In this document: piece after piece, positions 3,420 to 22,634 of the stretch
How the letters are laid out: the number at the start of each line of letters is the position of its first letter
How positions within the stretch are numbered: position 1 is the stretch's first letter
From: an uncultured Syntrophaceae bacterium
GTDB taxonomy: Bacteria; Desulfobacterota; Syntrophia; Syntrophales; Fen-1087
Direction of reading: 5' to 3'
NCBI GenBank assembly: GCA_964460245.1
Contig: CAYWTL010000001.1
Span: 56-64,055 of the forward strand
Length of the DNA stretch: 64,000 bases
Translations under genes and position numbers: made by a program
Notes under the pieces: generated by a model
The model's database searches: none
What the model was told of the DNA's origin: nothing
What the model saw: only the letters and a program-made list of their open reading frames with translations

Positions 3420-3449
3420 CCCCCTCTGGGAAATTCCCTCCTTTTCGAT

Positions 3450-4508
3450 TTAAAGCATATTCGCTTTGACCAGCCGCACTTCCTGCGGGAAATCACTCCC
3501 GGACCATCGCATCCGAACCGACTCCCACGGTTTTCCGGCTTCCTCATCGTCCGCCCGAAGCACTCCCAGTTCGTTTCCGGGACTCAACCGCGGGATAAGT
3601 CCCGCGATCTCCTCTTCGGACAATTTTCCGATGCCGGCCATGAAACCCCATTGGTCCTCATAAGGACGGAAGTTCTCATCCACGAAGACGCTTTTGCCTT
3701 GCTCCCTGGCCGTCTTCTGGAGGGGAAGAGCGATAAGGTTTCCGAAGCCACCCTTCGGCAAGGTGTCCTGATTGGGGAAGAAGCGGTCGTAAGATTTGAA
3801 GGTCAGTTCATGCCTTCGGCTCATGGCACAGGTCAGGAGGGCGGAACCAAACTTCCGCGCCAGGCCTGCGGGAAGGGGCTCCATAAAGAAAAACCAGGCA
3901 TGCGCCCCGTTTCCGGAACGGGAACGCTCCAAGGCCACGGGGATGCCGAAAGTATTGCATACTTCCCTGAGCGCGACGCAGTCCATTTGCCAACCTTCAT
4001 CGTCAAAATCGATGGCCAGAAGATGGCACAGATCATCCCGGCGCAGGGGGTAGAGGCCGGCGACAACACTCCCTCGGAGATGTGCCTCGATGACCTTTTC
4101 GTCCAGAGGATCGTATGATGGGTGAGGACAGTCAAAGCATTTCACTGTCGGTTTTCGGCAGATGCCCGCTTTCCATTCGTTTCGACAAACCGGTGCGTAT
4201 CCTACCCTGCCCTCTCGGTTCTGCCATCTCTTGGCGTACACATCCGCCCGTCCCTTGAACAGAGACATGAACAAGTGGATCTTTCCCGCCGCATTGAGTT
4301 GAGTGAGGATTCCCGAAGGATATTCCGCATTCGGAACATCCGATCTTTCATTTGCCGAAAACAGATGGGACTTAGGGTCTTGATCAGGATTCGGCAATCG
4401 ATCAGTAATCCCCAACCTTGCCTTCAGACGCTCGTTCTGTTCCCGTAGAGCGCTGTTTTCGGCAAGCAACGCCCGGTATTTTTGAAGCAATCCACTATCA
4501 TTTTCCAC
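3450..4508 (-). CDS. Archaeo-eukaryotic primase (AEP/PrimPol)-like domain protein with an N-terminal coiled coil; resembles TOTE-type conflict-system primase domain
   Basis: AEP motifs are present: AIDFDD (DxD) and GNGAHAWFFF (sGxGxH). A Cys-rich CRNEW..C..KC.DCPH segment is also present. The ORF ends in TAA exactly 30 nt upstream of, and in frame with, the helicase/PLD ORF. Confidence 0.7.
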   Translation of the reverse strand: MENDSGLLQKYRALLAENSALREQNERLKARLGITDRLPNPDQDPKSHLFSANERSDVPNAEYPSGILTQLNAAGKIHLFMSLFKGRADVYAKRWQNREGRVGYAPVCRNEWKAGICRKPTVKCFDCPHPSYDPLDEKVIEAHLRGSVVAGLYPLRRDDLCHLLAIDFDDEGWQMDCVALREVCNTFGIPVALERSRSGNGAHAWFFFMEPLPAGLARKFGSALLTCAMSRRHELTFKSYDRFFPNQDTLPKGGFGNLIALPLQKTAREQGKSVFVDENFRPYEDQWGFMAGIGKLSEEEIAGLIPRLSPGNELGVLRADDEEAGKPWESVRMRWSGSDFPQEVRLVKANML

Positions 4509-4544
4509 AGAGCAGCCCTCTGTCTGTCTTCCCTCAGAAACACT

Positions 4545-5759
4545 TCATCGAGACAAGGTGGGATACAGATCCGGGAAAAACCAGCTCGCGGCATGGATCG
4601 GGAACCCAAGACGAACGTCGCCTTTCGGCGTACTCGAAATGAGCAGCCCATCCATGATAAGTTGTCCCAGGAGACTTCTCCCCGTCCGTTCTTTGAGTCC
4701 TGACGCCTCGATGACGGCGCCCCGGGCTGCTTCACCCTTCACCAATACCTCCTGGAGCATTCGGGCCGATTCATTCCTCAAAGCTTTCTCCCCTGCAGGG
4801 CCGGGGATGATGCCGGAGCCGCGGAGTTCAATGTATCGCCGGATGCGTTCAACCAACTCTTCCAATCGCAGCAGGCCCCCCATGTATTCCACTTGGTCGA
4901 GACAGGCCTCCAGGAAGAAGCGGCAAAAAGAAATCAGCCCCTCATTGGACAGGTTACCCCTGCCGTCCAGATCATTCCGGCGAGGAGCATCGGCCTGAGA
5001 AAGGGCGGACTTGTATTCAATATTTCTCCGGGCCAACCCCCGGCTGACCGACCAGAGGCCGAAGCCACGGACAGGTATCCGGTGAAGGTAGGACTCGGTG
5101 AATAGGCGCGCCACCCGGCCGTTGCCGTCGAGAAAGGGGTGAATCCACATCAACCGATGGTGGGCCGCAGCGGCTGCAACAAGTTTCAGCGAACCATGAT
5201 GCCTGTCCGGCGCATAAAAGCCACTAAAACGGTCGAGAAACGCCTTTAGCGCCCCATGCTCCGGCGGTTGGTGGTAGCCTACTCGGACGGACTCTTCACG
5301 GAGTTCTCCCGGCACGACCCGCCTTTCCTTTCCCGTTTCAGGATTCTTCACAACCCGAAACTCCTCCGGCAGTTGCCGGTAAAACTCACGGTGGAGGTCA
5401 CAGAGAAATTCCCGGCCGGTTACATAGACTTCCGGTTCTTCCTGCAGCTTCTTCTCCATATCCCTCTGGACGGTGATATGGGCAACACTTTCCATCTGAA
5501 GATTGCGTTTTGCCGGTTCGGAATCATACTCCTTCTGCATGGCGCGAACGATGTCGTAAGGGTGGGTGTTATGACCCTCGATCAGATTGGAATAGTAGCT
5601 GTTGATGATCCTGAGCAGCTCATGAAGCGTGTTGAGTGTCACGGGATGCTGCCGGGTGCCGAGCGCAGCGGATTTTTGGATCACCTCTAGGGCGAGGTCT
5701 TGAAGATCGTCCGCCTCTTCGGGCAGGAGTGGCGTCATTTGGTGGATTTGCGTTCGCAT
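4545..5759 (-). CDS. Fic/DOC family protein (AMPylase-type) with an N-terminal inhibitory-helix motif
   Basis: Canonical Fic motif HPFLDGNGRVARL. The upstream SNLIEG matches (S/T)xxxE(G/N). GAGGGAG is the SD before the ATG at 5759. Confidence 0.9.
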   Translation of the reverse strand: MRTQIHQMTPLLPEEADDLQDLALEVIQKSAALGTRQHPVTLNTLHELLRIINSYYSNLIEGHNTHPYDIVRAMQKEYDSEPAKRNLQMESVAHITVQRDMEKKLQEEPEVYVTGREFLCDLHREFYRQLPEEFRVVKNPETGKERRVVPGELREESVRVGYHQPPEHGALKAFLDRFSGFYAPDRHHGSLKLVAAAAAHHRLMWIHPFLDGNGRVARLFTESYLHRIPVRGFGLWSVSRGLARRNIEYKSALSQADAPRRNDLDGRGNLSNEGLISFCRFFLEACLDQVEYMGGLLRLEELVERIRRYIELRGSGIIPGPAGEKALRNESARMLQEVLVKGEAARGAVIEASGLKERTGRSLLGQLIMDGLLISSTPKGDVRLGFPIHAASWFFPDLYPTLSR

Positions 5760-6264: not shown

Positions 6265-6305
6265 GTTCTTGACATTTTGATGGACGGGAGAGACAAAATA
6301 CTTTG

Positions 6306-9300
6306 ATGGCCGACCAGAAATCCATAGGAATCAAACTTCAAGACGATTATCCCGAGCGGATCAAAAGGCTCCGTGCCGGTCTCGGTCTTACTCAGCAATC
6401 GTTGGCTAATGCACTTGGAGTCTCCTTTGCCACCGTCAATCGATGGGAGAACGGCCAAACCAAGCCCTCGCAACTCTCCTGGAATCAGCTTCGTCAATTG
6501 GAGATGAGTCTCAAGGAAGAAGCGGCTCCCGATCGATCAAATAACGAGAAACCCCCACCGCCCATTCTCGATTTCACGGCCTCACCGGAGATCGTGAAAA
6601 TGCTTGCCGAAGGCGAGAGACTCTCCTTCGGCCATCTGATGAACCCTACCTTCGCCACGGAAATCTCAAGCATCGATCCTCTGCCCCACCAGCGCATCGC
6701 CGTCTATGATCACATGATGAAGCAGGCAAGGCTTCGATTTCTATTGGCCGACGATGCGGGCGCGGGGAAAACCATCATGGCCGGCCTTTACATCCGCGAG
6801 ATGCTTTCCCGTCGCCTGCTGAAGCGCATCTTGATCGTGCCACCTGCCGGTTTGGTGGGAAACTGGCGACGCGAGCTTTTGAAGCTTTTCAGCCTCTCTT
6901 TCCACATCGTCAGCGGCAACGATACCCGTCACGGGAACCCCTTCGCCGGTGAAAACGGTGATCAGGTCATCGTCAGTATCGATACCCTATCCAGCTCACG
7001 CGTTTTTTTCTGTCTGAAGGATCCCCGCGTTGCCCCTTACGACCTCGTCATTTTTGACGAGGCGCACAAGTTGGCGGCAAACCGTGGTCCGGATCTCCGC
7101 ATTCGGAAGACAGAACGTTACTGTCTGGCCGAGGCCTTAGCCGGCGTGAAAAGCAATGATCGACGCTGGCAATTGGACTGGAGCGCCTACCATCTCTTGC
7201 TGCTCACAGCCACGCCTCATATGGGCAAGGATTATCCTTACTACGCCCTCTGGCGGCTCTTGGAGCCCGAGGTTTTGTCCACGCCAGATGCCTTCGGCGA
7301 ATATCCGGCGGATCAGCGGCAAGCCCATTTCATCCGTCGGACGAAAGAGGAAATGGTGTACCCCGATGGCCGCCCCCTCTACCCCAGGCGTATCTCCGAT
7401 ACCCTGGGCTACCTTTTGACTCAAGGTGACGTCAGCGAACAACGGCTTTATGACGAAACAACGGACTACCTGCGCTACGTATACAACAAGGCCAAGCTCC
7501 TGAACCGGGAGGCGGCAAGACTGGCCATGAGCGTATTTCAGCGACGCATGGCCAGTTCGACATATGCACTCCTGCGCTCCTTTGAACGGCGCGTCGAAAA
7601 ACTGAGTATCCTTATCGACGAGATCCAGGACGGAAAACTTAGTCCCGAAGCACTTGTTGCCCGCCAGCAACGGTTGCACCTGGAAGACGACGTCTTCGAT
7701 GCGAAAACAGCCGACGACGAGATTTCCGACGAGGAACGCGAGGAAAATGAAGCGGCCGAGGACAGGCTCCTACAAGGCGTTGTCGCCGCCTCATTGTCAG
7801 ACCTGCTGGCGGAAAGGGAACAGGTTCGGCAACTTCTCGACCTGGCGAAGCAGGTTTATGAATCAGGTCAGGAATCAAAATTCGAAAAGCTTCGGGAAGC
7901 ATTGACCGATCCCCGTTACAGCGACGAGAAATTCATCATCTTTACCGAGCATCGCGACACCCTCCTTTTCCTCGTGAGACGCTTGAGTGGGATGGGATAC
8001 ACCGACCAGATCGCCCAGATCCATGGTGGTATGCACTATAGCCAGAGGGAAGAAGAGGTCGAACGATTCCGAAAACCGGTCACCGAGGGAGGTACGCGTT
8101 TTCTGATCTGCACGGATGCAGCGGGCGAAGGCATCAATCTCCAGTTCTGTTGGATCATGATCAACTACGACGTTCCCTGGAATCCGGCCCGGCTGGAACA
8201 GCGGATGGGGCGCATCCATCGTTACCTCCAAAAGCACGATCCCGTGATCATTCTGAACCTGGTTGCCCCATCCACCCGTGAAGGAAAGGTTATCAAAACA
8301 CTCCTCGACAAGCTGGAAAAAATCCGCAAGGAACTTCAGTCCGACAAGGTTTTTGACTGTATCGGCCGCTTCTTTGAAGGGGTATCCATCAAGCAATACA
8401 TGGAGCTGGCCGTGACCGAAGACGCTGAAACGGTCGCCCGTGAACTGGATGGACGGCTGACAAAGGAACAGATTGAAGCCTTGGCAGAACGGGAGAGATC
8501 TCTCTATGGCGGTGGCGGCGACGTGGCCGGCGAGCTTCCGCGCCTTCGCGCCGACCTGGAGCGGGAAGTGCACTTCCATTTGCTCCCCGGCTATGTGCGG
8601 CAGTATATCGAACAGGCCGCCCCGCTCGTGAATATTGAGATCGCGGGCGATCCAGGCGGCATCTTCTCCTTGCATCCGAAACGATTGGGCGCCATGGATG
8701 CGCTATTACCGGATCTGGAGTTATACCCCGAAAAGACGCGGGAACGGTTTTCCGTTTCCCGGACCACGGATCTGCTGGCACCTGATGTAAAAACGGGGAA
8801 GGACGATTTCATTTGGCTCCATCCCGGTGATCCGGTTTTTGAACGATTCCGATCTCTGGTAGCCGAGTACCTGGGCAATCAAGGTAAGCGCGGCGCCGTC
8901 TTTATCGACCCCAATACCGAAAAGCCCTATCTCTTTCACATGGCCCTCATCCATATCGTTCGCAAGGCCGATCCGGAAATCCCAAGACTGGCCAAGGACG
9001 AGTTGCTGGATTGTCGCCTGGTCGGTGTGAAACAATATGAAGGCGCGGAAATTTCACTCTGCCCCGTCGAACATCTTCTCCTTTTGCGGGGTGGAAGTGG
9101 CCTGCCTGCATCAGCTCAGCGACTGGCCGTGCGGGCCAACGAGGAAAAGGGTCATGTCCTGGCCTACCTTTCTGAACGAGTGGCCCGGGAATTGGCGCTT
9201 GATCGACGGCAGAGCTTACTGGATAGCCTCCCCGAACGAGAGAATTTTCTGCAAAGAGGCTTTGATTGCCAGGAAGCAGAGTTGGCGCTGTCTCGCGCCC

Positions 9301-9902
9301 GGCATGCTGAAAAGGCGCGGTCGGGCAACCGGAAAGCTATCGAAGCCTTGGAAGAGATAAAGCGCCAGCAGCGGCAACTGGTAAGCCTCCGGGAAGGCGC
9401 CATGGCCCTACTGCAGCGAGAACCGGAACTCATCGCTCCAGGTTCGATCGCTTTCGTAGCCCATGCCTTGGTCGTTCCGTCTTCCGATCCGGCGGATCAG
9501 GAACAGTATGACGTCAATGTTGAGCAAGTGGCGATGAAGGTTGCCCAAGCCTTCGAGGAGGCGGCCGGCGCCAAGGTGCTCGATGTCCATACGCCAGAAC
9601 GAGCCCGCGCAGCAGGCCTTCCGGAGAATCCTGGATTCGATCTCTTCTCACTGCGGTCGGAAAATGAAAAACTGGGCATCGAGGTCAAAGGGCGAGCGGG
9701 AACAGGCAACATCGAGGTATTAGCCAATGAATGGGCCAAGGCCTGCAACATGCGGCAGGATTACTGGTTCTACGTAGTATATGACTGTGCCACACCAAAC
9801 CCCAGGCTAGTGCGGGTTCAAGATCCCTTCGGAAGCTTGCTCGCCAAGAGCAAGGGCAGCGTTTTGATCAGCGCCAAGGAAATCGGACAGGCAGCAATTT
9901 AG
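6306..9902 (+). CDS. XRE-HTH / SNF2-family helicase / C-terminal DUF3883 (PD-ExK-like) fusion protein
   Basis: N-terminal HTH: LGLTQQSLANALGVSFATVNRWENGQ. Helicase motifs: DDAGAGKT (I), FDEAHKL (II), LTATPH (III), GEGINLQ...QRMGRIHRY (V/VI). C-terminus: GFDLF...IEVKG...YWFYVVY. The ATG at 6306 follows the TTG at 6303. Confidence 0.9.
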   Translation: MADQKSIGIKLQDDYPERIKRLRAGLGLTQQSLANALGVSFATVNRWENGQTKPSQLSWNQLRQLEMSLKEEAAPDRSNNEKPPPPILDFTASPEIVKMLAEGERLSFGHLMNPTFATEISSIDPLPHQRIAVYDHMMKQARLRFLLADDAGAGKTIMAGLYIREMLSRRLLKRILIVPPAGLVGNWRRELLKLFSLSFHIVSGNDTRHGNPFAGENGDQVIVSIDTLSSSRVFFCLKDPRVAPYDLVIFDEAHKLAANRGPDLRIRKTERYCLAEALAGVKSNDRRWQLDWSAYHLLLLTATPHMGKDYPYYALWRLLEPEVLSTPDAFGEYPADQRQAHFIRRTKEEMVYPDGRPLYPRRISDTLGYLLTQGDVSEQRLYDETTDYLRYVYNKAKLLNREAARLAMSVFQRRMASSTYALLRSFERRVEKLSILIDEIQDGKLSPEALVARQQRLHLEDDVFDAKTADDEISDEEREENEAAEDRLLQGVVAASLSDLLAEREQVRQLLDLAKQVYESGQESKFEKLREALTDPRYSDEKFIIFTEHRDTLLFLVRRLSGMGYTDQIAQIHGGMHYSQREEEVERFRKPVTEGGTRFLICTDAAGEGINLQFCWIMINYDVPWNPARLEQRMGRIHRYLQKHDPVIILNLVAPSTREGKVIKTLLDKLEKIRKELQSDKVFDCIGRFFEGVSIKQYMELAVTEDAETVARELDGRLTKEQIEALAERERSLYGGGGDVAGELPRLRADLEREVHFHLLPGYVRQYIEQAAPLVNIEIAGDPGGIFSLHPKRLGAMDALLPDLELYPEKTRERFSVSRTTDLLAPDVKTGKDDFIWLHPGDPVFERFRSLVAEYLGNQGKRGAVFIDPNTEKPYLFHMALIHIVRKADPEIPRLAKDELLDCRLVGVKQYEGAEISLCPVEHLLLLRGGSGLPASAQRLAVRANEEKGHVLAYLSERVARELALDRRQSLLDSLPERENFLQRGFDCQEAELALSRARHAEKARSGNRKAIEALEEIKRQQRQLVSLREGAMALLQREPELIAPGSIAFVAHALVVPSSDPADQEQYDVNVEQVAMKVAQAFEEAAGAKVLDVHTPERARAAGLPENPGFDLFSLRSENEKLGIEVKGRAGTGNIEVLANEWAKACNMRQDYWFYVVYDCATPNPRLVRVQDPFGSLLAKSKGSVLISAKEIGQAAI

Positions 9903-9915
9903 GACAGGTAATTCC

Positions 9916-10248
9916 ATGAACCCTCTTCTGTCCGCAGCAACCATTATGGCTCTCAGTTATCGGGCGCTTCAGCTTAAGGAGCAATTCAGGGATGATAACC
10001 TGTTTTCATTTTCGATTGAACTCTTGACAGATTGCCGTCATAGCACGTATGAACTATTCATTACCCCCCTCGGTAGCTTCGGCGAAAAGGCGCAGAGTAG
10101 CCCCGCAATGGGCGGCTCTTGCTTTATCCATACAACCCATTCGGATTCCGACCAACATATAAGACAATCAGCCGATTTGTATGTATTGTTTAGGGTCTAT
10201 GCTCACAAGAAGGGTCATTGTGTTTCTATGCCAAGGAGGACTGACTGA
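9916..10248 (+). CDS. Small hypothetical protein (110 aa)
   Basis: The ORF starts 14 nt after the helicase stop and ends in TGATG, overlapping the next start. It has no recognisable motif, and whether it is coding is uncertain. Confidence 0.3.
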   Translation: MNPLLSAATIMALSYRALQLKEQFRDDNLFSFSIELLTDCRHSTYELFITPLGSFGEKAQSSPAMGGSCFIHTTHSDSDQHIRQSADLYVLFRVYAHKKGHCVSMPRRTD

Positions 10249-11441
10249 TGAATAATCAAGAATTGGAAGAACTTCTCTTCGATTTGGAATCGGATCGGAT
10301 AGAGCGAAAAGAATCTATCGCCGATATGAAAAAGATCCGTCAGGCCGTCTGCGCCTTTGCGAATGATTTGCCCAATCATCGGCAGCCTGGCGTAATCTTC
10401 ATCGGGGCTCGAGATGACGGTAGTTGTGCAGGTCTACAGATTACAGATCAATTGCTACTCACGCTTTCTGATATGCGATCGGATGGCAATATACTGCCGC
10501 TTCCCATGATAACTGTCGAAAAAAGAGTGTTAAGGGGCTGTGAACTGGCGGTCGTCATAACGGAACCTTCGGATCTCACGCCCGTTCGTTTTCAGGGCAG
10601 GGTATGGATTCGTGTGGGACCGAGGCGCGCAATCGCTACGGCAGAGGAAGAGCGACGCTTGAATGAAAAGAGGCGCTCGCGCGATCTTCCTTTTGATCTC
10701 TATCCCCTAAGCTCTGCATCAATCCAGGATTTGGATCTGGATCTTTTCCAAAGAACCTATCTCTCCGCAGCTATTTCACCGGATATTCTTGCAGAGAACC
10801 AACGATCGACGGAACAGCAGTTGGCCTCATTGCGTTTTATAACGCCCGATAGCCCTGCCATACCCACGGTAGCCGGTTTGCTGGCGGTCGGCAAATCCCC
10901 GAACGATTTCATCCCTGGCGCCTATGTGCAGTTCTTGAGATTTGAAGGTGCGGAGCTGACAGATCCCATTGCCGACCAAAAATCCATATCCGGCCCATTA
11001 TCACAGGTGCTCAGGGAACTTGATGAAATTTTCAAGGCAAACATCCGTATTCCAACAGATATTGTTTCAGAAGCCACTGAAGTGAGACGGCATGACTATC
11101 CCATTACCGCAATCCAACAATTCGTGAGAAATGCCGTCATGCATCGCGATTATCAGACATCGAACGCACCGGTCCGCGTGACTTGGTTTGTCGACCGTGT
11201 CGAAATTCAGAATCCCGGCGGCCCGTTCGGACAGGTCACCAGACAGAATTTCGGCCAACCTGGCATCACGGATTATCGCAATCCCAATATTGCTGAAGTA
11301 ATGAAGAATCTCGGTTATGTGCAACGATTTGGCGTCGGAATTCAGATTGCCCGTAAGGCTCTTGCCGACAACGGAAATCCGCCTGCGGATTTTCATATTG
11401 AAGACAACCATGTACTGGTGACGATCCGGAGGAGAACATGA
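10248..11441 (+). CDS. AlbA_2 (Schlafen-like) DNA/RNA-binding domain protein with an HATPase_c_4-like C-terminal domain
   Basis: The N-terminal ELLFDLESDRIERKES...A.AN is typical of the AlbA_2/AAA_4 family. The C-terminal FVRNAVMHRDY...RNP.IAEVM..LGYVQRFGVG is also typical. A strong AAGGAGGA SD precedes the start. The stop overlaps the next ATG (ATGA). Confidence 0.7.
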   Translation: MNNQELEELLFDLESDRIERKESIADMKKIRQAVCAFANDLPNHRQPGVIFIGARDDGSCAGLQITDQLLLTLSDMRSDGNILPLPMITVEKRVLRGCELAVVITEPSDLTPVRFQGRVWIRVGPRRAIATAEEERRLNEKRRSRDLPFDLYPLSSASIQDLDLDLFQRTYLSAAISPDILAENQRSTEQQLASLRFITPDSPAIPTVAGLLAVGKSPNDFIPGAYVQFLRFEGAELTDPIADQKSISGPLSQVLRELDEIFKANIRIPTDIVSEATEVRRHDYPITAIQQFVRNAVMHRDYQTSNAPVRVTWFVDRVEIQNPGGPFGQVTRQNFGQPGITDYRNPNIAEVMKNLGYVQRFGVGIQIARKALADNGNPPADFHIEDNHVLVTIRRRT

Positions 11442-12436
11442 GCATTCCCGTCATTGCCTTTTTCAATAACAAAGGAGGGGTAGGAAAAACATCCCTCGTC
11501 TATCATGTGGCCTGGATGATGAGCGAACTTGGGCTACAGGTCTTAGCAGCAGATCTTGACCCCCAATGCAATCTCACCGCAGCCTTTCTTGACGAGGACC
11601 AACTGGAGTCGTTATGGCCCGACAATGAGCAGCCGCCAAGCACGATTTACGGTGCCATTCGTCCTCTGCAGACGGGCATCGGCGATGTGACTGAACCGAA
11701 ACTTCAGAATCCGGTGGAAAATCTCTCGCTACTTGCCGGCGATATGCTGTTGTCCGGATTTGAAGACGGCCTTTCCGAAGCATGGCCCAAATGCCTCGAT
11801 CGGGATGAACGCTCGTTTCGAGTTATATCATCCTTCTGGCGCATCATCCAAAAAGGAGCTGCACAAAAAGATGCTGAAGTCATCCTAATTGATTTGGGGC
11901 CGAATCTCGGCGCAATCAACCGCGCGGCCTTGATCGCATCGGATTATGTGGTCATCCCTCTGGGACCGGATCTCTTTTCTTTGCAGGGTCTGAAAAACTT
12001 GGGACCGGCTTTGCGGAACTGGCGGGAAGGATGGAAAGAAAGACTGCCGAAGAATCCTTCAAAGAACTTGATTCTTCCGAAAGGGGATATGCAACCGTTA
12101 GGATACATCGTCATGCAGCATTCCGTGCGTCAGGACCGTCCGGTGAAAGCGTATGATAAGTGGGTATCCAGAATTCCTTTCACCTACGAGCGTTTTGTTC
12201 TCGATCGGGATACAAAGCTTCATCGAAGAATAGAAGGTGATCCCAATTGTTTTTCTCTTATCCGCCATTACCGGAGCCTCATGCCCATGGCCCAAGAAGC
12301 AAGAAAACCCATGTTTTTTCTAAAGCCAGCCGATGGCGCAATAGGTGCTCATGCCAGGTCTGTTCAGGATTCCTACAATGATTTCAAAGAGTTAACGAAA
12401 AAAATCCTCTCAAAGGCAGGGATTCTTCAAATATGA
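11438..12436 (+). CDS. ParA/Soj-like AAA ATPase (long form, 332 aa)
   Basis: Deviant Walker A FNNKGGVGKTS, followed by AADLDPQCN. ATGA overlaps occur at both ends. Confidence 0.85.
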   Translation: MSIPVIAFFNNKGGVGKTSLVYHVAWMMSELGLQVLAADLDPQCNLTAAFLDEDQLESLWPDNEQPPSTIYGAIRPLQTGIGDVTEPKLQNPVENLSLLAGDMLLSGFEDGLSEAWPKCLDRDERSFRVISSFWRIIQKGAAQKDAEVILIDLGPNLGAINRAALIASDYVVIPLGPDLFSLQGLKNLGPALRNWREGWKERLPKNPSKNLILPKGDMQPLGYIVMQHSVRQDRPVKAYDKWVSRIPFTYERFVLDRDTKLHRRIEGDPNCFSLIRHYRSLMPMAQEARKPMFFLKPADGAIGAHARSVQDSYNDFKELTKKILSKAGILQI

Positions 12437-15400
12437 CCGATACACCACGTTTGATTGAACACGCCTTTCCCTTGAAGCAGGCGTCCCTGGATTCGGTACA
12501 TGAGAAGAACGTTCGCCATGGTCATATCTCGACCCTCCATATCTGGCCGGCGCGACGGCCACTGGCAGCCTGTCGGGCAGCCCTGATCGCTACGCTGCTG
12601 CCCGACCCAAGCGCCCAGCCAAAGCCCGATGGCATGTCCGATGAAGAGTGGCATCAGGAAATCATCCGTCTGCGTCGGGAACTCTGCGAGAAGATCGGCG
12701 GCAAGACGGTGAAGACCGTCGAAAAGAAGAAGATGCCGAACGGTCAGATCGTCGAACGGGAGAAGGAAGAAACGTCTGGCGGCATCCTCCATTGGGGCTT
12801 GGAGACAAAGAACAAAGAGCTTTTGGATTGGTTCCGTCAGGAGATTCGCAAGGCCCACGGCGGTCGGGCGCCGAAGATCCTCGACCCCTTCGCCGGCGGC
12901 GGGGCGATCCCTCTGGAGGCGATGCGGCTGGGTTGCGCGGCAACCGCCGTGGACATCAATCCCGTGGCCTGGTTCCTTCTGAAATGCACCCTCGAATACC
13001 CCCACCGATTGGCGGGTAAGACCCTTCCACTTCCTGATTTCATCCTCGACGACGAAGCCTTCATGGAGGTCTTTTACAAGGCCCATTCCCATCTGATCGG
13101 CCGCACCAAGAAGACCAAACAGCAAAAGGAAAAAGAGGAAAGGGCGCCAGGCCTTTTCGACAAGCCGGATTCCGGGAGGGCGCCGAAGGCGGATCTCGCC
13201 TGGCATGTTCGGGCCTGGGGCCAGTGGGTGCTGAAAAATGCCCGCCGCGAGCTGGCTGCCTACTATCCGGCCTATGCGGATTTTGAGCCCATCAGCGGCA
13301 CTTTCCCCAAGCCCTATGAAAAACAGCCTTTGCGGCTCGTGCCGCTAAGCAAGGACGGCACGCCGGATATCGAAGCCCTCAACATCGATTTCAGCGAGGA
13401 ATACCTCCGGGACAAGAGCAATCCCCGCTGGGTAGCCAAACCGACGGTAGCCTACCTCTGGGCGCGAACGGTGTCATGCAAGAACTGCCGTGCCGTCATC
13501 CCGCTCCTCAAGACCCGGTGGCTCTGCAAAAAGGATAAGAAACGGGTTCTCCTCACCATGGCGCCGAATGCCGACAGGTCCAGCGTCACCTTCGGCATCG
13601 AGGCAAATGTCCCGGTCAAGGGCGGCAACGCGGCCCAGCGCCGGGAACAGGACAAGCAGCTCGGCAGCGGCACCATGTCCCGCTCCGGGGCCAAGTGCCC
13701 CTGCTGCGGGACGATCATGACCATGGAAGACATCCGTCTGGAGGGGAAGGCCGGCCGCCTGGGATCGGTCAATACAGCCGTGGTCGTGGACGGCCAGAAG
13801 GGCAAGGAGTATCGCCTGTCCATGGATCATGAGATACGGATGGCGGCCGAAGCCGAGAAGGCTGTTGCCGATGTCTTTGCCGAGATCCCCTTCGGGCTGC
13901 CGGAAGAACCAACACCCAAAGGTGGAAGTGGCGCTAGTAGGGCTTTCTCAGTGGACGGCTATGGTTTCAACCAATGGCAAAAGCTCTTCACGCCTCGTCA
14001 GCTCTTGGCTATGGGAACATTCGTGAAATCGACGCGGGCTATTATCAAGAACTCTCAATTAGGAAAAAACAATGAACTTGTGCCTATCTTAGCCTACCTA
14101 GCGGCAGCAGTAGACAGGTTGTCCGACAGATGTGCCACACTCTGCACGTGGGATCAAGGATACACCAAGGTTAACCATGTGTTCAATAGGTATGCACTAC
14201 CAATTACATGGGACTTCTGTGAAGGAAATCCGCTGTCTGAAACAACGGGGAATTACGGAGATGCTGTAACGTGGATATGCAAATATATTGACCACGCAAT
14301 TGATGCCTGTCCTAACGCAACGGCCCCAATTGTTCGTCAAGAATCAGCCATTTCCACCAATATCAATGAGATTTTCGATATCATTGTTACCGATCCTCCA
14401 TACTATGACGCCATTCCTTATTCGGATCTCATGGACTTCTTCTATGTTTGGCTCCGCAGGGTCCTCTTCGGAATCACTGAAGACTTTGATACTGCCTTTC
14501 AGGAGACGCTATCTCCAAAGTGGAATCACAGTACAAGTGATGGTGAATTGATTGACGACGCCAGTCGTCATGGAGGGGATAAAAATAAATCCAAAACAGT
14601 CTATGAAGAGGGTATGTTTCATGCTTTTCAGAAATGTTCCGAAGCATTAAATGATGAAGGAAGATTAGTGATCGTCTTTGCACATAAACAACCAGATGCG
14701 TGGGAAACTTTAGTATCAGCTATTATACGTGCCGGATTCACTGTTGACGGTAGTTGGCCCATTCAGACTGAAATGAGTACCGGCCTTCGCAATTATGGAC
14801 GGGCATCACTTGCATCCTCAGTTTGGCTTGTCTGTAAAAAACGGTCTGCAACGGCTAAACCCGGATGGGACAATCAGGTCCTGGAAGAGATGCGGAAAAA
14901 GATCCGGGAGCAGCTCCGCGAGTTTTGGGACGCAGGGATCCGCGGTCCCGACTTCGTCTGGGCGGCGACGGGCCCGGCATTAGAGGCTTATAGCAGGCAT
15001 CCAGTCGTCCGCAAAGCCACCGAACCGGGTCCGATGACGGTCAGCCAGTTTCTCACCCACGTCCGAAGAATGGTTGTGGATTTCGTAGTTGGCCGAGTAC
15101 TTTCTGGAGACGGAACCGCTTCTCTGGCACCGGAGGAGATAGACGCGATGGGCCGGGATCGTCTGGATGAGCCAACAGCTTACTACCTGCTTCATCGTCA
15201 CGACTTTGGTATGGAGGAGGCTCCGGCTGGGGCGTGCATCCTCTACGCGGTCTCTTGTGGTATCTCGGACAAGGAACTAGCCGACACCTGGGACCTCATC
15301 AGTTCTGCAAAAGGGAAGTCGTCAGAGGAAGCGGAAGAAAAGGCCGACGCCGATGCGGAGGCGGACCCGGAAGCCTCGGAGGAATCGGGAAACAAGGTGA

Positions 15401-15723
15401 AGCTCAAAACCTGGGCGCAGCGGAAGGGTCGCTCTATGGGATACGAGGCCCCCGGAGGCAAGCCCGTTCCTCTCATCGATCGCGTTCACCGCCTGATGCA
15501 CCTTTGGAAGGCGGGCGACCTTCACAAGGTGGACGGATATCTCGATGACAACGGCCTACGGCGCCAGGAGCTTTTCCGGCGGCTCCTGCAATCCTTGATC
15601 GAACTGTCGCCCGCCGGAAGCGAGGAAAGATCGCTTCTTGAATCCATCAGCAACCATATCCATGCCAAAGGCGCCGTCAATGATCGGCAGGTAGGCATGG
15701 CCTTCGACGAGAATGGAGCATGA
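12433..15723 (+). CDS. DUF1156-type (COG1743-like) Zn-ribbon DNA methyltransferase (N6-A/N4-C class)
   Basis: The N-terminal IEHAFPL...HIWPARRPLAACRA is the DUF1156 signature. Motif I is LDPFAGGGAIPLEA. Zn-ribbon pairs are CKNC and CPCC. Motif IV is VTDPPYYD. Confidence 0.9.
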   Translation: MTDTPRLIEHAFPLKQASLDSVHEKNVRHGHISTLHIWPARRPLAACRAALIATLLPDPSAQPKPDGMSDEEWHQEIIRLRRELCEKIGGKTVKTVEKKKMPNGQIVEREKEETSGGILHWGLETKNKELLDWFRQEIRKAHGGRAPKILDPFAGGGAIPLEAMRLGCAATAVDINPVAWFLLKCTLEYPHRLAGKTLPLPDFILDDEAFMEVFYKAHSHLIGRTKKTKQQKEKEERAPGLFDKPDSGRAPKADLAWHVRAWGQWVLKNARRELAAYYPAYADFEPISGTFPKPYEKQPLRLVPLSKDGTPDIEALNIDFSEEYLRDKSNPRWVAKPTVAYLWARTVSCKNCRAVIPLLKTRWLCKKDKKRVLLTMAPNADRSSVTFGIEANVPVKGGNAAQRREQDKQLGSGTMSRSGAKCPCCGTIMTMEDIRLEGKAGRLGSVNTAVVVDGQKGKEYRLSMDHEIRMAAEAEKAVADVFAEIPFGLPEEPTPKGGSGASRAFSVDGYGFNQWQKLFTPRQLLAMGTFVKSTRAIIKNSQLGKNNELVPILAYLAAAVDRLSDRCATLCTWDQGYTKVNHVFNRYALPITWDFCEGNPLSETTGNYGDAVTWICKYIDHAIDACPNATAPIVRQESAISTNINEIFDIIVTDPPYYDAIPYSDLMDFFYVWLRRVLFGITEDFDTAFQETLSPKWNHSTSDGELIDDASRHGGDKNKSKTVYEEGMFHAFQKCSEALNDEGRLVIVFAHKQPDAWETLVSAIIRAGFTVDGSWPIQTEMSTGLRNYGRASLASSVWLVCKKRSATAKPGWDNQVLEEMRKKIREQLREFWDAGIRGPDFVWAATGPALEAYSRHPVVRKATEPGPMTVSQFLTHVRRMVVDFVVGRVLSGDGTASLAPEEIDAMGRDRLDEPTAYYLLHRHDFGMEEAPAGACILYAVSCGISDKELADTWDLISSAKGKSSEEAEEKADADAEADPEASEESGNKVKLKTWAQRKGRSMGYEAPGGKPVPLIDRVHRLMHLWKAGDLHKVDGYLDDNGLRRQELFRRLLQSLIELSPAGSEERSLLESISNHIHAKGAVNDRQVGMAFDENGA

Positions 15724-15804
15724 GAACGGAATTATTTCTTGGATGGGAAATTCGGCAGACTGCGTCTGCTGAATTGGTGCGATAACATGAGGAGGGAAAA
15801 ACCG

Positions 15805-18800
15805 ATGACTAAGCTCCCCTGGAAGCCATGGCATGAAGTGGTGAAGCTCCGCGACGATCTCCGGTCTGGTGATCTGCCTCTGCACCTGTTTGCCGCCGAT
15901 CTCTACGACGTCATGATGCAACGAGGGAAAAGAAAAGTTTATGAAGATCCGGAACAGTTCTTTGCCCTCACCTTTCCCACCTTCAACCTCCGGCGTCTGG
16001 TCCGGGATGTCATGCTGCGGCTGGCCGGGAAGAACGATAAGGCCGTCCGCCAATTGGAGCTGACCTACGGCGGAGGAAAGACCCATACCCTGATCACACT
16101 TCGGCATCTTGTCCATGATCCGGAAAAGTTGCCGAAACTGCCGGCCGTGGAGGAGTTCATCCAAGAGATCGGCCAGAAACCGCCCCGGTGCCGTGTGGCT
16201 GCCCTTTGTTTCGACAAACTGGATGTTGAAAAGGGAATGGAGGTTGTCTCGCCCTCCGGCAAGACCAGGATGCTGAAACAGCCCTGGAGTGTATTGGCCT
16301 GGCAGTTGGCGGGAGAAGAGGGGTTGAAGATTCTCCATGCTGATGGCCTGCCTGAGGAGCGCGAAACGGCGCCGGCCGAGAATCTGCTCACCGAGCTGTT
16401 GGAGATACCGGGCAAGGAAGGACTCGGGAGCCTCTTGCTCATCGACGAAGTACTTTTGTATGCCCGAGAGAGGGTAGGCAAAGATGTCGTCCGCCTTCAG
16501 AGTTTAGTGAACTTTTTTCAATACCTGACGCAAGCGGCCACCAAGGCAGACCGGTGTTGTATTGTGGCATCGCTGTTGGCTAGCGAGCCCACCTCGGAGG
16601 ACGAACTGGGTCGAAGGATAAAGGCTCAGATATACGACATTTTCCAGCGCCAGCGGGAGGAGGCCGTCGAACCCGTGGTCAAGGAAGATGTGGCCGAGGT
16701 CCTCAGAAGGCGGTTCTTCAAACCCGAATCCCTCAAGGATCGGGAGGTCTTCCGCCAGCATGTCGTAGCGGCCCTCAAAGGGATTACGGCCGTCGACGAG
16801 CAGACGGCCAAACAGGGTGCAAATGCGGAACAGCGGTTTCTGGACAGCTACCCCTTTCATCCCGATCTCACGGAAGTGCTCTACTCCAAATGGACGCAGT
16901 TGGCCCGTTTTCAGCGGACCCGGGGCGTATTGCGGATCTTCGCCCTGGCCCTGCGGGAGGCGGAGAAGTGGGACAAATCGCCCCTCATCGGCCCGGCCGT
17001 GTTTCTCAATGCCCCAAAAAGCGAAGGGTTGTCGGAAGCCCTCCGGGAAATGGTCACCGTCGCCGACACCGAGGAAACCGAAGGTAAGAAACAGGCATGG
17101 ACAGGGATACTGGACAACGAATTTGAACAGGCCAAGCGGATTCAGCAAGAGTCGGTGGGTCTAAAATTTCGGGAAGTCGAACAGGCTGTTGTTGCTACTT
17201 TTCTTCATTCCCAACCCATCAGCCAGAGCGCCAAAACGAGAGAGCTTGTTGTGCTGATGGGCTCGACCCGCCCCGACAAGATCGAGTTAGAAAAAGGCCT
17301 CTATCGTTGGTCGCAGACCAGCTATTGGCTTGACGATCTCAATACCTCGACACCGGAGGGACAGCTTCCCGGTACCTGGCGCCTTGGGAATCGGCCCAAC
17401 CTCAACCAGATGCACGCTGTAGCGGCAAAAAACATCCCGGACGATACGGTCCGCGCTCGGCTGCTGGACGACATCGGCAAGCTCAAGTCCCTGACGGCCA
17501 ACGCCTCAGCCGCGGGGGTTCATCCTCATACGCTTCCGATACGACCGAAGGATATAGAAGACGATGGGGCCTTCCACTATGCTGTTTTGGGACCTGGAGC
17601 AGCGTCCGAATCGGGTAAGCCGAGCATCGAGGCCAAGCGATTCCTGGACGAGACAACGGGGTCCGACAAACCTCGCGTCTACCGGAATGCAGTCGTTCTG
17701 GTCACACCTTCCAAGGATGGATTAGAACTGGCGTCGGCCCGCGTACGCGACTATCTGGGATGGGAGGGCGTGCGGGAAGAGATCAAACAGCAACAAAAGG
17801 ACGGCAACGTCGATCCGGCCAGGGCACAGACGCTGTCCATCAACATCGACAAGGCCAAGGGACGCATCCCCGATGCGATCCGTCAGGCCTGGTGCATCGT
17901 CGTTACGGTTTCGGAGAAGGATGAAGCGCAGTCCTTCAAGATCACGGTCACGGATGATCCCCATTTCAACATTATCAAGTCAGACAAGCGGAGCCGTATG
18001 CAGGATACGCCGGTCACCGCAGAGGCCCTCTTGCCCGATGGCCCTTATAACCTCTGGCGTCCTGGTGAGACCGCCCGGCGGGTCAAGGATCTTTCCGGCG
18101 CCTTCGCCCAGCTCCCCCATCTGCCGAAGATGATCAAGGCCAGCGCCATCCTCAGTACGCTGGCGGAAGGCTGCGGGAAAGGAATCTTTGTCCTGCGCCT
18201 TGTCAGACCGGACGGCACATCCCGCACTTGGTGGATGACAAAGCCCGATGATATCGCCCTGAGCGATCCGGCACTGGAGCTCGTACTGCCGGCGTCAGCC
18301 GAACTGGGCGAGATTCCGCCGGCGCTGCTGTCCCCAAACGTCCTGCCCGGCTTGTGGACAGCGGATGAGATCACCTTTCAAGCTGTCACCGACTACTTCA
18401 ATGGCAAGAATGTGGTTCAGGTCGAGCGGGAGGGCTACCGGGAGTCGCTCCCCATTCCAAAGGCCGCTGAAGGTGTTGTGGAAAAGGCTGTTGCCTCCGC
18501 AGTGGAAAGCGGCTTGTTGTGGCTCCTTTGCGGACCGGCAAGCATCCTCGGTGAACCGATACCGCCCGGCGTATTGAATGAAAGCGCTAAGCTCTCAGCG
18601 CCGCCAGCGGTCATCGCCGCCGCAGAGATCCTGCCGGAAAACCTGCCGGGTGCCTGGAAGGGCGGCTATGCATCGGGACTTTCCGTCTCTACGGCGCTAT
18701 CCATCAGGGAGAAAAAAACGCTGCCCTGGAAGACGATCAAGGACGTGATCGGCGGTGCTTTACAGGCGCGGTTTCTTGCCCTGTCGGAAAAGTCAGCCGC

Positions 18801-19101
18801 ATGGCCCTGTGACTTCCCGTCGGCGCAATCGGTCATCCTGAAACCGCCAGCCACGCCGCCCCCCCCGCCTCCGCCCCCGCCGGGACTGACGCTCGGTGCA
18901 GAAGCCGATCTCGAACCATCACAGATTCAAGACCTGGGGGACATCGTTCCCAAGCTTTTGGAAATCAAGAAAACGGGCTTGCCGATGCGGTTTCGTCTGC
19001 GAATCGAGATCGGCGACGGCAAGACCGCGCCTCCTGAAAATGTGGTCAAGGAAGTGAATACCTTGCTTAAGGATGTGAAGGAGGATTTGCAGCTGAAGTA
19101 G
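15805..19101 (+). CDS. DUF499-type (COG1483-like) P-loop ATPase
   Basis: The N-terminal WHEVVKLRDDLRSGDL..FAADL is DUF499-like. Walker A is TYGGGKTHT and Walker B-like is LLLIDEV. I moved the start to the ATG at 15805 (GAGGAGGG SD 8 nt upstream); the longest ORF starts at 15739. A poly-Pro linker (P9) precedes a ~70-aa C-terminal domain. Confidence 0.8.
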   Translation: MTKLPWKPWHEVVKLRDDLRSGDLPLHLFAADLYDVMMQRGKRKVYEDPEQFFALTFPTFNLRRLVRDVMLRLAGKNDKAVRQLELTYGGGKTHTLITLRHLVHDPEKLPKLPAVEEFIQEIGQKPPRCRVAALCFDKLDVEKGMEVVSPSGKTRMLKQPWSVLAWQLAGEEGLKILHADGLPEERETAPAENLLTELLEIPGKEGLGSLLLIDEVLLYARERVGKDVVRLQSLVNFFQYLTQAATKADRCCIVASLLASEPTSEDELGRRIKAQIYDIFQRQREEAVEPVVKEDVAEVLRRRFFKPESLKDREVFRQHVVAALKGITAVDEQTAKQGANAEQRFLDSYPFHPDLTEVLYSKWTQLARFQRTRGVLRIFALALREAEKWDKSPLIGPAVFLNAPKSEGLSEALREMVTVADTEETEGKKQAWTGILDNEFEQAKRIQQESVGLKFREVEQAVVATFLHSQPISQSAKTRELVVLMGSTRPDKIELEKGLYRWSQTSYWLDDLNTSTPEGQLPGTWRLGNRPNLNQMHAVAAKNIPDDTVRARLLDDIGKLKSLTANASAAGVHPHTLPIRPKDIEDDGAFHYAVLGPGAASESGKPSIEAKRFLDETTGSDKPRVYRNAVVLVTPSKDGLELASARVRDYLGWEGVREEIKQQQKDGNVDPARAQTLSINIDKAKGRIPDAIRQAWCIVVTVSEKDEAQSFKITVTDDPHFNIIKSDKRSRMQDTPVTAEALLPDGPYNLWRPGETARRVKDLSGAFAQLPHLPKMIKASAILSTLAEGCGKGIFVLRLVRPDGTSRTWWMTKPDDIALSDPALELVLPASAELGEIPPALLSPNVLPGLWTADEITFQAVTDYFNGKNVVQVEREGYRESLPIPKAAEGVVEKAVASAVESGLLWLLCGPASILGEPIPPGVLNESAKLSAPPAVIAAAEILPENLPGAWKGGYASGLSVSTALSIREKKTLPWKTIKDVIGGALQARFLALSEKSAAWPCDFPSAQSVILKPPATPPPPPPPPPGLTLGAEADLEPSQIQDLGDIVPKLLEIKKTGLPMRFRLRIEIGDGKTAPPENVVKEVNTLLKDVKEDLQLK

Positions 19102-19213: not shown

Positions 19214-20545
19214 ATGGACCTTTTTTTAACGGCATATGATCCTTCCGATCTGCCAGGGGGCAGTATTGACCCGTTGGGTTTTGAACGTGGCTATCTCTTC
19301 TTGGCAGATAAGATTCTTCCTGGCATGACGAACGTCGCCTCGTGTCCAAGATATTTTGGGATGCTTTGTGCCGCGTCGCTCCTATCAGGCGTTGGAGGGG
19401 AAGAAGCATCTCGGAATCAAAGAACAAAGAGGGTCGAAAGCATTTTGAGGTTGGAGCGTCTGTGGGCATTGGCAAATGTTCTCGCCAAAACCAAAGACGG
19501 CAATCTGTCCGGATTGAGGGGCGTGACCTATGCACAGAGACAAGCGGAGCGCCTAAATGAAAACGGGCATACCAAAACAAGTTGCGATTACAAGCTCCTT
19601 GTCCGTCAGGCACCGTATGGCGCCGTGGGCATTTATGGTGCCGTATCGGAATACTGTAAACTTCTTTACCGGAAGACCTATGAATTGACCCCAGGGCTAG
19701 GCGCAGTTTTAGCGGAATGTTTCATTGAAGAAACAGGTATGCCCAAACAAGTAAAGAAAGCTGTTGTTGAGGCTGCTGAAGTATCTATCAGTGTCTTGGC
19801 CGAGTGGGGAGAGAGGGCCTACCTCTGGGGAAAATCCGGTACCGGAGAAAGTGCGTGCATAGCTGATATGATCGACGGCGTCGATATCAGATCACGCTTT
19901 GCTCTTCTTGCAACGAAAAACCAACCATTAGAAAATGAAACGGAAATCCAGCGGCTCGGGCGGATGACAGTCGCCATAAAGGGGAGTGATGATAACCATG
20001 ACATCTGGGAATCCCTTCAGGCAATCATGGGTTACGAATCCTGCTACAGATTGGCCCAACTCGCTTTCGAGAGACTCCTTTTTCTTTGTCGAAAAAGGAG
20101 CGGTCCTGGTGGAAGTTTCAAAATTTCTGATCTTACAGAAGATAAAGTGTTTCTCAATATTCTTGCACAGCTCCCCGTCGCCGTCGGATCTTTTTGTCAG
20201 ACCCTGGACAAGGCTGAAACTGCACACTTCAGAAAGGAAACCGAAGAGCGACTGGCCGACGTCCGTCAGTTTCTCGTTGATGCGGCAACAGCAGGCACCA
20301 GTTCCAGCAACCTCTGTGAGATCATTTTGAATCGTCACAGAGACGTCCAGCACGGAAAATTTGATCATGGAAGGAGAAAAATGCCATGGATTCAGATGAA
20401 TGACGGGAAACTATCCCTAACGATGACGCGGGTCGGCGGATTGGACCGGGAGGCAACAGAGCCGGAAGACATTACGCCTCACTTTTATCGATTGGAAGCT
20501 GCCGATAACTGGATGAGGGCCGCGGGTCGTTATGAAGACAGGTGA
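19214..20545 (+). CDS. Hypothetical protein (443 aa), no motif recognised
   Basis: A long ORF on the operon strand with protein-like composition. The N-terminal GGSIDPLGFERGY..LAD..LPG.T is reminiscent of DUF4007-like proteins, but only vaguely. The SD is poor. The 3' end overlaps the PLD start by 14 nt. Confidence 0.6.
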   Translation: MDLFLTAYDPSDLPGGSIDPLGFERGYLFLADKILPGMTNVASCPRYFGMLCAASLLSGVGGEEASRNQRTKRVESILRLERLWALANVLAKTKDGNLSGLRGVTYAQRQAERLNENGHTKTSCDYKLLVRQAPYGAVGIYGAVSEYCKLLYRKTYELTPGLGAVLAECFIEETGMPKQVKKAVVEAAEVSISVLAEWGERAYLWGKSGTGESACIADMIDGVDIRSRFALLATKNQPLENETEIQRLGRMTVAIKGSDDNHDIWESLQAIMGYESCYRLAQLAFERLLFLCRKRSGPGGSFKISDLTEDKVFLNILAQLPVAVGSFCQTLDKAETAHFRKETEERLADVRQFLVDAATAGTSSSNLCEIILNRHRDVQHGKFDHGRRKMPWIQMNDGKLSLTMTRVGGLDREATEPEDITPHFYRLEAADNWMRAAGRYEDR

Positions 20546-22625: not shown

Positions 22626-22634
22626 GGGAGACCA

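Follow-up and report, generated by a model that had tools for sequence, protein, structure and literature searches.

Hma (helicase-methylase-ATPase) operons are anti-phage systems related to bacteriophage exclusion (BREX) and have been renamed Type-1 DUF499-centred BREX-related (BR) systems (PMC12839542). The interval between their genes hmaA and hmaB is an insertion hotspot, with inserts such as Septu, PARIS, and Ppl in 66.5% of hma loci (PMC11232893), and in at least 1017 taxa, BREX and BR loci contain embedded Schlafen proteins with a kinase-like domain that serve as backup effectors (PMC12839542). The Schlafen domains of prokaryotes are tRNases that are activated by phage and have the catalytic motif Ex4(E/D)xK (PMC13056530), and in the Schlafen-Argonaute system SLFN-pAgo ATP binding by a GHKL domain drives the tetramerization that activates the nuclease (bioRxiv 10.64898/2026.05.29.728809). 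Both the hotspot and the presence of a Schlafen-kinase gene within a BR/Hma operon have been reported before. Here we analyze a stretch of 64,000 nucleotides from an uncultured Syntrophaceae bacterium (contig CAYWTL010000001.1; the whole stretch is referred to as the window), in which a gene for a Schlafen protein with a GHKL ATPase domain and a gene for a ParA-like ATPase lie between hmaA and hmaB. We conclude, with a probability of roughly 0.7, that these two genes are an autonomous dyad lodged as cargo at the hotspot and not a core part of the Hma machinery. For the commonest class of bacterial Schlafens, which combine a Schlafen domain with a kinase-like ATPase, no activation mechanism is known to us. 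The obligate ParA-like partner, its natural fusions, and a wider pattern of ParA-like proteins paired with effectors appear to be new.

Judged by their domain content, the genes flanking the pair are an Hma system. The window contains an SNF2 helicase with a C-terminal NOV_C nuclease, and a DUF1156 N6-methylase and a DUF499 ATPase are present in one operon. The features discussed below are the following.

6303-9902, plus strand: hmaA, SNF2 helicase with an N-terminal helix-turn-helix (HTH) and a C-terminal NOV_C (PD-(D/E)XK) nuclease; upstream boundary of the cargo site.
9903-12432, plus strand: cargo segment, between the hmaA stop and the hmaB start.
9916-10248, plus strand: 110-codon open frame, from the listing of open reading frames (ORFs).
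10058-10132, plus strand: hairpin element, from alignment, RNAalifold, and a covariance model.
10248-11441, plus strand: Schlafen (AlbA_2) RNase domain plus GHKL ATPase ("Schlatpase"), 397 aa, from Pfam; predicted effector.
11438-12436, plus strand: ParA-like deviant Walker A ATPase with a family-specific C-terminal extension, 332 aa, from Pfam and NCBIfam; predicted ATP-dependent switch, sensor, or antidote.
12433-15723, plus strand: hmaB, DUF1156 N6-adenine methylase; downstream boundary of the cargo site.
15739-19101, plus strand: hmaC, DUF499 AAA+ ATPase, from Pfam (DUF499) and PADLOC (HmaC, E 1.2e-72).

The hmaA product matches the Pfam families Helicase_C, SNF2-rel_dom, HTH_3, and NOV_C as well as the PADLOC model HmaA (E 1.8e-146), and the hmaB product matches DUF1156, MethyltransfD12, and the PADLOC model HmaB (E 1.8e-122). 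All genes of the cargo segment are packed tightly. The TGA of the 110-codon ORF (10246-10248) has one base in common with the ATG of the Schlafen gene at 10248 (TGATG), the TGA of the 397-aa ORF overlaps the ATG of the ParA-like gene at 11438 (ATGA, 11438-11441), and the TGA of the 332-aa ORF overlaps the methylase ATG at 12433 (ATGA, 12433-12436). Shine-Dalgarno-like AGGAGG/GGAGG motifs are located 7-8 nt upstream of the first two starts. The three junctions had been described in an initial annotation of this DNA and are exact, both in the ORF listing and by direct reading; they bear out its statement that the pair is tightly coupled internally and to the methylase. Pfam also confirmed the gene identities given there (an AlbA_2 plus HATPase_c_4 protein, a ParA-like protein, a helicase, and a methylase).

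The relationship between the two cargo genes was assessed in genome loci retrieved with the ParA-like protein, using one genome per species. This search returned at least 591 loci, 80 of which were kept for analysis. In all 80, the ParA-like gene is immediately preceded by a Schlafen-type gene of the same orientation, which is truncated or degraded in seven of them, next to an intact ParA-like gene. The junction between the two genes reads ATGA in 60 loci and is an overlap in 72, with a GGAG motif upstream. An overlap of 4 nt is common in operons and alone says little; the recurrence of ATGA in 60 and of an overlap in 72 of the 80 loci marks the overlap as a conserved feature of this family. 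Each protein has more than 8000 close homologs of uniform length (~331 aa for the ParA-like and ~397 aa for the Schlafen protein) with 57-70% identity across phyla, and the pairwise distances of the two proteins correlate with each other (r 0.65). The dyad loci span Cyanobacteria, Planctomycetota, Chloroflexota, Desulfobacterota, Acidobacteriota, and Verrucomicrobiota and include one Methanospirillum. An obligate pairing of this kind between a Schlafen and a ParA-like protein appears to be undescribed.

The genomic surroundings of the dyad vary widely. When the ten nearest genes were clustered, only Hma genes were conserved, and these only in a minority of the loci: about 12 of the 80 are Hma-type, ~16% lie in Hma or BREX operons, and ~84% are without Hma. 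The flanking Pfam families are mostly unrelated and include UvrA, tRNA synthetases, and transketolase. Among the exceptions, L012 (5330-17438; L numbers denote loci of our collections) is a BREX operon with BrxC, the pair, PglX, and Ppl, the viral contig L176 (6758-11293) carries the pair followed by PglZ and so has a BREX context, and L056 (5565-14884) contains a DUF1156 methylase, the pair, and a PLD-helicase and is Type-2 BR-like. In four cyanobacterial loci (L023, L042, L048, and L049, from Nostocales HT-58-2, Anabaena, Dolichospermum, and Symploca), the gene directly upstream of the dyad encodes a protein of ~930-1000 aa. Four upstream neighbors in the set have UvrA domains, and these loci are likely the ones, the assignment to individual loci being presumed. 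When both proteins were looked up by exact sequence, the only matches were two short identical contigs, which gave no new context. Taken together, the two genes are an autonomous, horizontally spread dyad and a self-contained module. The initial annotation had considered that the pair might be absent from all related loci and occur elsewhere as a self-contained mobile cassette. The cassette was indeed found elsewhere; the absence from related loci was not complete.

How often Hma systems carry the pair was estimated from loci ascertained through the methylase, namely 80 Hma loci (49-88% identity) obtained by scanning metagenomes with the methylase N-terminus. The pair is present in three of them (L097, L102, and L105). 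A fourth, L092, is cut off at the contig end and shows a ParA-like gene of 45% identity immediately 5' of hmaB, which would raise the count to 4/80; a further 4/80 carry an unrelated solo Schlatpase with 27-30% identity. Where both ends of the interval are visible, hmaA adjoins hmaB in 9/64 loci and an insert of at least 600 bp separates them in 52/64. The families found as cargo are Schlafen (6), NYN (5), AAA_14/DUF4143 (4), SMODS/CBASS (3), OLD-type ATPases, AbiEii, Fic, Abi_C, and HEPN. These frequencies agree with the initial annotation in that the pair is not a standard component of DUF1156/DUF499 systems, and a core Hma gene would be present in most or all members, which the pair is not.

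From the translational coupling to the methylase, the initial annotation had gone further and concluded that the two proteins belong to the machine. The pair would then be an accessory subunit of this Hma variant, involved for example in DNA or nucleoid sensing or in positioning and working with the methylase, and the coupling would set the stoichiometry. ParA-type ATPases bind DNA non-specifically as ATP dimers, as established for Soj/ParA, which would suit such a role. The ATGA overlap with hmaB is in line with this possibility, as is the order hmaA-pair-hmaB, which does not vary among the close relatives that make up the lineage of the window (80-93% identity). The pair is also directly upstream of the methylase gene in the Hma loci L006, L043, L097, and L102, in the divergent Hma-like loci L039 and L050, and, with PglX as the methylase, in the BREX operon L012. 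However, tight coupling is not specific to the pair. The last co-directional cargo gene overlaps the hmaB start in 19/49 loci and ends within 20 nt of it in another 15/49 (34/49 together), with unrelated cargoes being joined to hmaB equally tightly. Since cargoes of any kind overlap or crowd hmaB, the coupling is a property of the site. Against a subunit also speak the absence of the pair from ~95% of related Hma loci, in which hmaA and hmaB are often adjacent, the lack of any methylase in most pair loci, and a single-chain version of the pair that is encoded among housekeeping genes (see below).

The evolutionary evidence points in the same direction. Hma-embedded pairs are scattered over the tree of the pair, and pair-bearing loci are scattered over the HmaB tree beside pair-less sisters. 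The two trees are thus incongruent, and the pair does not co-diverge with the Hma genes as a core component would; these scattered positions indicate repeated insertion and not co-evolution. The identities of ParA-like and HmaB proteins correlate only weakly across nine loci (r 0.48), and a single close pair accounts for this value. L083, the pair-less locus with the nearest backbone, has an HmaA that is 80% identical to that of the window and carries a different cargo. In blastn comparisons with pair-less Hma loci (L083, L085-L089, and L095), homology breaks off right at the hmaA stop (~9862-9897) and resumes at the hmaB start (12430-12454), and the cargo has a G+C content of 0.48-0.52, compared to mostly 0.53-0.62 per 600-nt window in the flanking Hma genes, apart from a dip within hmaB. 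Scans for promoters and terminators gave nothing above the expectation from shuffled sequences, and neither a clear internal promoter nor a clear terminator was seen where the cassette begins and ends. Thus, the coupling to the methylase does not serve as proof of machine membership, being generic to the site, whereas ~84% of the dyads have no Hma and other Hma loci hold other cargo. Membership in the machine is not supported, and we regard an accessory subunit as quite improbable. The preferred reading of an independent dyad at a hotspot leaves room for cooperation with the host system. Independent insertions have brought the pair into Hma, into a Type-2 BR locus, and into BREX operons, and this recurrence makes some functional synergy as an auxiliary layer plausible. 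The pair may be a functionally associated auxiliary module.

The 397-aa protein combines SLFN_AlbA_2 (PF04326, E 9e-13) and HATPase_c_4 (PF13749, E 3e-18) in one chain. The Schlafen catalytic motif Ex4(E/D)xK is present as E14-SDRI-E19-R-K21, and among 67 family members E14 is conserved in 65, E19 in all 67, and K21 as lysine in 56. In the C-terminal half, the GHKL residues N295, H299, G324-G325, and G362/G364 are conserved across the family, and Foldseek matched this half to the ATP-binding domains of histidine kinases and PDK, using a structure model of only moderate confidence (predicted local distance difference test, pLDDT, 66.6). The Foldseek matches together with the conserved N295, H299, and glycine motifs identify a Bergerat-fold ATP-binding domain. 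The best match among solved structures is 3LMM (DIP2311). PADLOC returned only domain-level matches, to pAgo and Aga models, which fall on the Schlafen-GHKL module. Proteins of this type were referred to in the initial annotation as nucleic-acid-binding regulators, which is outdated; the architecture is now read as a Schlafen RNase joined to a GHKL ATPase, and the 397-aa protein is a predicted RNase effector of the "Schlatpase" supradomain type.

The 332-aa protein matches AAA_31/CbiA/ParA-type models (E 3e-28) and contains the deviant Walker A motif KGGVGKT. Its signature lysine K12, the P-loop lysine K17, and the aspartates D39, D41, and D152 are invariant in the family. The AlphaFold2 model (pLDDT 85) is most similar to 3PG5 (DIP2308), followed by Soj, ParA, and McdA, with a Foldseek probability of 1.0 for the latter three. 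Thus, the KGGxxGK[ST] motif, the Walker A' and Walker B aspartates, and the fold are all those of a ParA/MinD-type ATPase. In PADLOC, the protein gave a match to PDC-M28B that is confined to the P-loop. Such a protein might be an ordinary partition ATPase of a mobile element with the Schlafen gene as an unrelated neighbor. There are weak NCBIfam matches to partition RepA/ParA models, and relatives with 38-42% identity on viral contigs are located among small genes, as partition loci are. Nevertheless, the scores of the NCBIfam partition models are all far below the curated cut-offs, most contexts are chromosomal, and no ParB-type family, as expected for the partner in a ParABS system, is among the frequent Pfam families of the immediate neighbors of pair loci. 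The invariable adjacency to a Schlafen gene and the conserved overlaps also disagree with a chance neighborhood, and so do natural fusions between the two proteins. The obligate pairing and the fusions effectively refute this possibility, which we consider hardly credible.

A profile search with the ParA-like family revealed 750 clusters (50% identity) at E<=1e-30, and among the proteins retrieved were fusions and pairs with other effectors. P0255 (L222, 6001-8196) is a 731-aa single chain in the order Schlafen-GHKL-ParA-like, which was found on 15 contigs from several samples and is encoded among housekeeping genes. P0290 (L225, 4814-7638) is a 545-aa fusion of a ParA-like protein to a RES toxin, and a separate Schlatpase gene precedes it with a 4-nt overlap. 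On 16 viral or prophage contigs (among L197-L216), distant full-length ParA-like relatives (27-36% identity) are followed by a gene for a ThsA/LmuA-like SIR2 protein of ~288 aa. The junctions of these ParA-like and SIR2 genes are mostly 4-nt overlaps, and one of the dyads is located beside an integrase (L205, 3729-6642); we found no ParA-like-SIR2 dyad in PADLOC or in the papers searched. Another full-length relative (24.5% identity) is encoded in P22-like Salmonella prophages, as in phage ST160 (NC_014900; L168, 2753-5062), right after the c2 repressor and a DUF3024 gene that matches the PADLOC candidate PDC-S43 (E 2e-41). A position just after the repressor is typical of prophage-encoded exclusion genes. 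Plasmid relatives are located near an Abi gene, a type I restriction gene, and "mobile mystery protein" genes. Our literature search found no paper on a ParA-Schlafen or ParA-SIR2 system and none of relevance on DIP2308 or DUF3024.

The single-chain fusion, the ParA-RES fusion, and the ParA-like-SIR2 dyads support a logic of sensor and effector, and the findings suggest a modular family of ParA switches and effectors. A much broader generalization can be envisaged, in which DIP2308-type ParA-like ATPases would define a large undescribed family of two-gene immune systems with a common ParA switch or sensor to which different suicide effectors can be coupled, namely Schlafen-GHKL RNase, SIR2, RES, and perhaps also HEPN or DUF3024. 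Dyads with a Schlafen would have been recruited repeatedly beside BREX-type methylases as a guard that fires once the primary defense has been circumvented or blocked. To notice this, the guard might, for instance, use the DNA-binding surface of ParA to detect foreign DNA or DNA mimics. At this breadth the proposal is speculative and rather unlikely.

For the dyad itself, the most likely interpretation is a module of the toxin/switch type that adds an auxiliary layer, with a tRNase effector controlled by ATP-driven partners. We tentatively propose a specific mechanism, of which we are less than convinced. The Schlafen domain would be a toxic effector that cuts tRNA or other RNA, and the GHKL domain would gate this nuclease through ATP-dependent oligomerization. 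The ParA-like ATPase might bind the Schlafen protein as an ATP-dependent switch and either hold the nuclease inactive in the manner of an antitoxin or sense a trigger such as foreign DNA, a DNA mimic, or a phage protein. Release of the nuclease would then stop translation, resulting in abortive infection. Inside Hma, the cassette would be co-transcribed with the methylase and probably acts as an extra or backup layer and not as a subunit of the helicase-methylase-ATPase system.

Several points weigh against this interpretation of the dyad. An RNase activity, toxicity, and contact between the ParA-like and Schlafen proteins are properties that we infer. No single catalogued two-gene system in PADLOC-DB v2 was matched by both proteins. 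Guilt by association is weak for ~80% of the loci, with many neighbors being housekeeping genes (uvrA, tRNA synthetases), and a PADLOC analysis of 96 immediate neighbors from non-Hma loci gave almost no defense matches. With the identities across phyla given above, both proteins are unusually conserved for defense genes. Hma and BREX operons that are divergent have the pair at the same position, which could mean a real functional tie to the methylase. Finally, the seven loci in which the Schlafen gene is degraded and the ParA-like gene intact fit a relationship of toxin and antidote, in a set that is biased because its loci were found through ParA; the natural fusions are another indirect hint of such a relationship.

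Some of these points would be expected if the dyad were a selfish addiction cassette resembling toxin-antitoxin systems, or a non-immune regulator of stress or translation, in which case it would be found in Hma and BREX only because the site is permissive or because it stabilizes the locus, with no antiviral role. The location of most loci outside recognizable defense neighborhoods, the high sequence conservation, and the degraded Schlafen genes all fit this explanation. So does the stable synteny downstream of uvrA in several cyanobacterial loci; a stable uvrA-side context in cyanobacteria would argue for long residence or a non-defense role in that lineage. In the study of prokaryotic Schlafens termed pSlfn, ~30% of the Schlafen genes were located away from defense genes and five of seven tested constructs gave no robust protection (bioRxiv 10.1101/2025.07.24.666596, later PMC13056530). 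On the other hand, at least 13/80 loci are in BREX-related operons, which are rare in genomes, and the other occupants of the hotspot are bona fide defense modules. ParA-like paralogs pair with SIR2 and RES effectors and are located in prophage immunity regions, and the prokaryotic Schlafens characterized so far all act in phage defense (PMC13056530, PMC13462974). On balance, we consider a purely selfish or regulatory role unlikely and retain the interpretation of the dyad as an auxiliary toxin/switch module.

The segment between hmaA and the Schlafen gene contains two further elements. The product of the 110-codon frame has no family match, and no homolog was found outside the closest lineage. 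In the close relatives L164 and L170-L174 the frame stays open over 90-111 codons and always ends at the Schlafen start. Substitutions are distributed 18/18/18 over its codon positions, with 9 synonymous and 32 non-synonymous changes, compared to 17/11/97 by codon position and 85 synonymous versus 29 non-synonymous changes in the Schlafen gene used as control. A third component of the system or a conserved protein was rejected for this ORF, as the codon-position test shows no purifying selection. By its substitution pattern the frame probably does not represent a conserved protein gene; possibly it is translated as a leader, with the sequence of the peptide being irrelevant.

The best-conserved part of the 110-codon frame is a hairpin element of ~75 nt (10058-10132), which consists of a small UUCG mini-hairpin, a G+C-rich stem of 11-13 bp, and a U-rich tail. 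In the alignment, analyzed by RNAalifold, 6/18 pairs of the hairpin have compensatory changes. A covariance model (R1) detected the element in Hma loci with NYN cargo (L085, 1845-1920; L087, 4457-4533; L098, 6796-6872; L141, 8332-8407), where it is positioned just 3' of hmaA and 5' of the NYN cargo genes, and the element is also present at L164 (4028-4102). The same model found it in no pair locus outside the window's Hma lineage, and an Rfam search of positions 9700-10400 gave no match. The hairpin was therefore rejected as a part of the pair. As it occurs with different cargoes and is absent from the other pair loci, it belongs to the hmaA 3' flank and so to the part of the Hma backbone that borders the hotspot. 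It could function as a terminator or attenuator, as a processing site, or as a recombination landmark.

Family and PADLOC scans showed that the wider window is a defense island. On the minus strand, 5' of hmaA (1602-5759), are genes for a helicase-PLD protein (605 aa), an AEP-TOTE primase-like protein that matches the TOTE conflict system (E 1.5e-100), and a Fic-domain protein, which place the Hma operon within this island. Directly 3' of hmaC on the plus strand (19214-26120), there is a candidate second system of three genes with a G+C content of ~0.50, below that of Hma. They encode a 443-aa protein without a family match, a 697-aa tandem-PLD protein that is ZacB/PDC-M27B-like, and a 1161-aa SNF2-type helicase that is PDC-M27C/ZacC-like. 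This candidate system is followed by RecQ and housekeeping genes. The interior of hmaB (13900-14800, plus strand) has a sharp dip in G+C content to 0.43-0.47, compared to ~0.59 elsewhere in the gene, and may be an exchanged target-recognition segment.

These results illustrate that tight operon packing at a defense hotspot is easily misread as membership in a machine. One very large, highly conserved Schlafen subfamily always has a dedicated ParA-like ATPase, which offers a concrete and testable partner for the regulation of the nuclease. Annotation pipelines label the two genes "RecG helicase", "BcsQ", or "chromosome partitioning protein".

Compared with known systems, the window protein most closely resembles the Schlafen plus minimal histidine kinase genes, partly with a winged helix-turn-helix (wHTH), that were described as backup effectors of BREX/BR (PMC12839542). 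They have in common the combination of SLFN_AlbA_2 and PF13749, the kind of host operon, and the position within the core locus beside the methylase. The window protein differs in its obligate ParA-like partner and in having no C-terminal wHTH, and a ParA-type partner is not mentioned in the text and supplementary files of that study as far as these are searchable. The Hma hotspot study (PMC11232893) concerns the same junction; the cargoes there are Septu, PARIS, Ppl, and AAA_21 or GmrSD-like, and a Schlafen-ParA dyad is not listed. SLFN-pAgo (bioRxiv 10.64898/2026.05.29.728809) and pSlfn (PMC13056530) share the Schlafen-GHKL module and the Ex4(E/D)xK motif with the window protein, which has neither an Argonaute nor a fused sensor and instead is accompanied by a separate ParA-like gene. 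The ParA-like protein shares its fold and its catalytic aspartates with Soj, ParA, and McdA, as well as a deviant Walker A motif that includes the signature lysine. In contrast to these, it has an extra C-terminal region of ~80-100 residues, its partners are effectors of the toxin type, and no ParB or centromere partner was found. The PDB already holds structures of distant homologs of both parts. DIP2308 (3PG5) and DIP2311 (3LMM) from Corynebacterium diphtheriae are the best solved matches of the ParA-like and the Schlafen protein, with ~27% and 16-18% identity, respectively, DIP2311 being longer (583 aa) and both being uncharacterized structural-genomics targets. Since the numbers of their locus tags differ by only three, C. 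diphtheriae may have a related locus. A dyad of a HEPN protein and a ParA/Soj-like ATPase has been proposed to be a toxin-antitoxin pair (Anantharaman et al., PMC3710099). The effector of the present dyad is of the Schlafen plus GHKL type, and no HEPN domain was detected in it, whereas both dyads follow the same logic of an RNase toxin combined with ParA/Soj, and some members of the HEPN family concerned, MAE_18760, also have a Schlafen domain.

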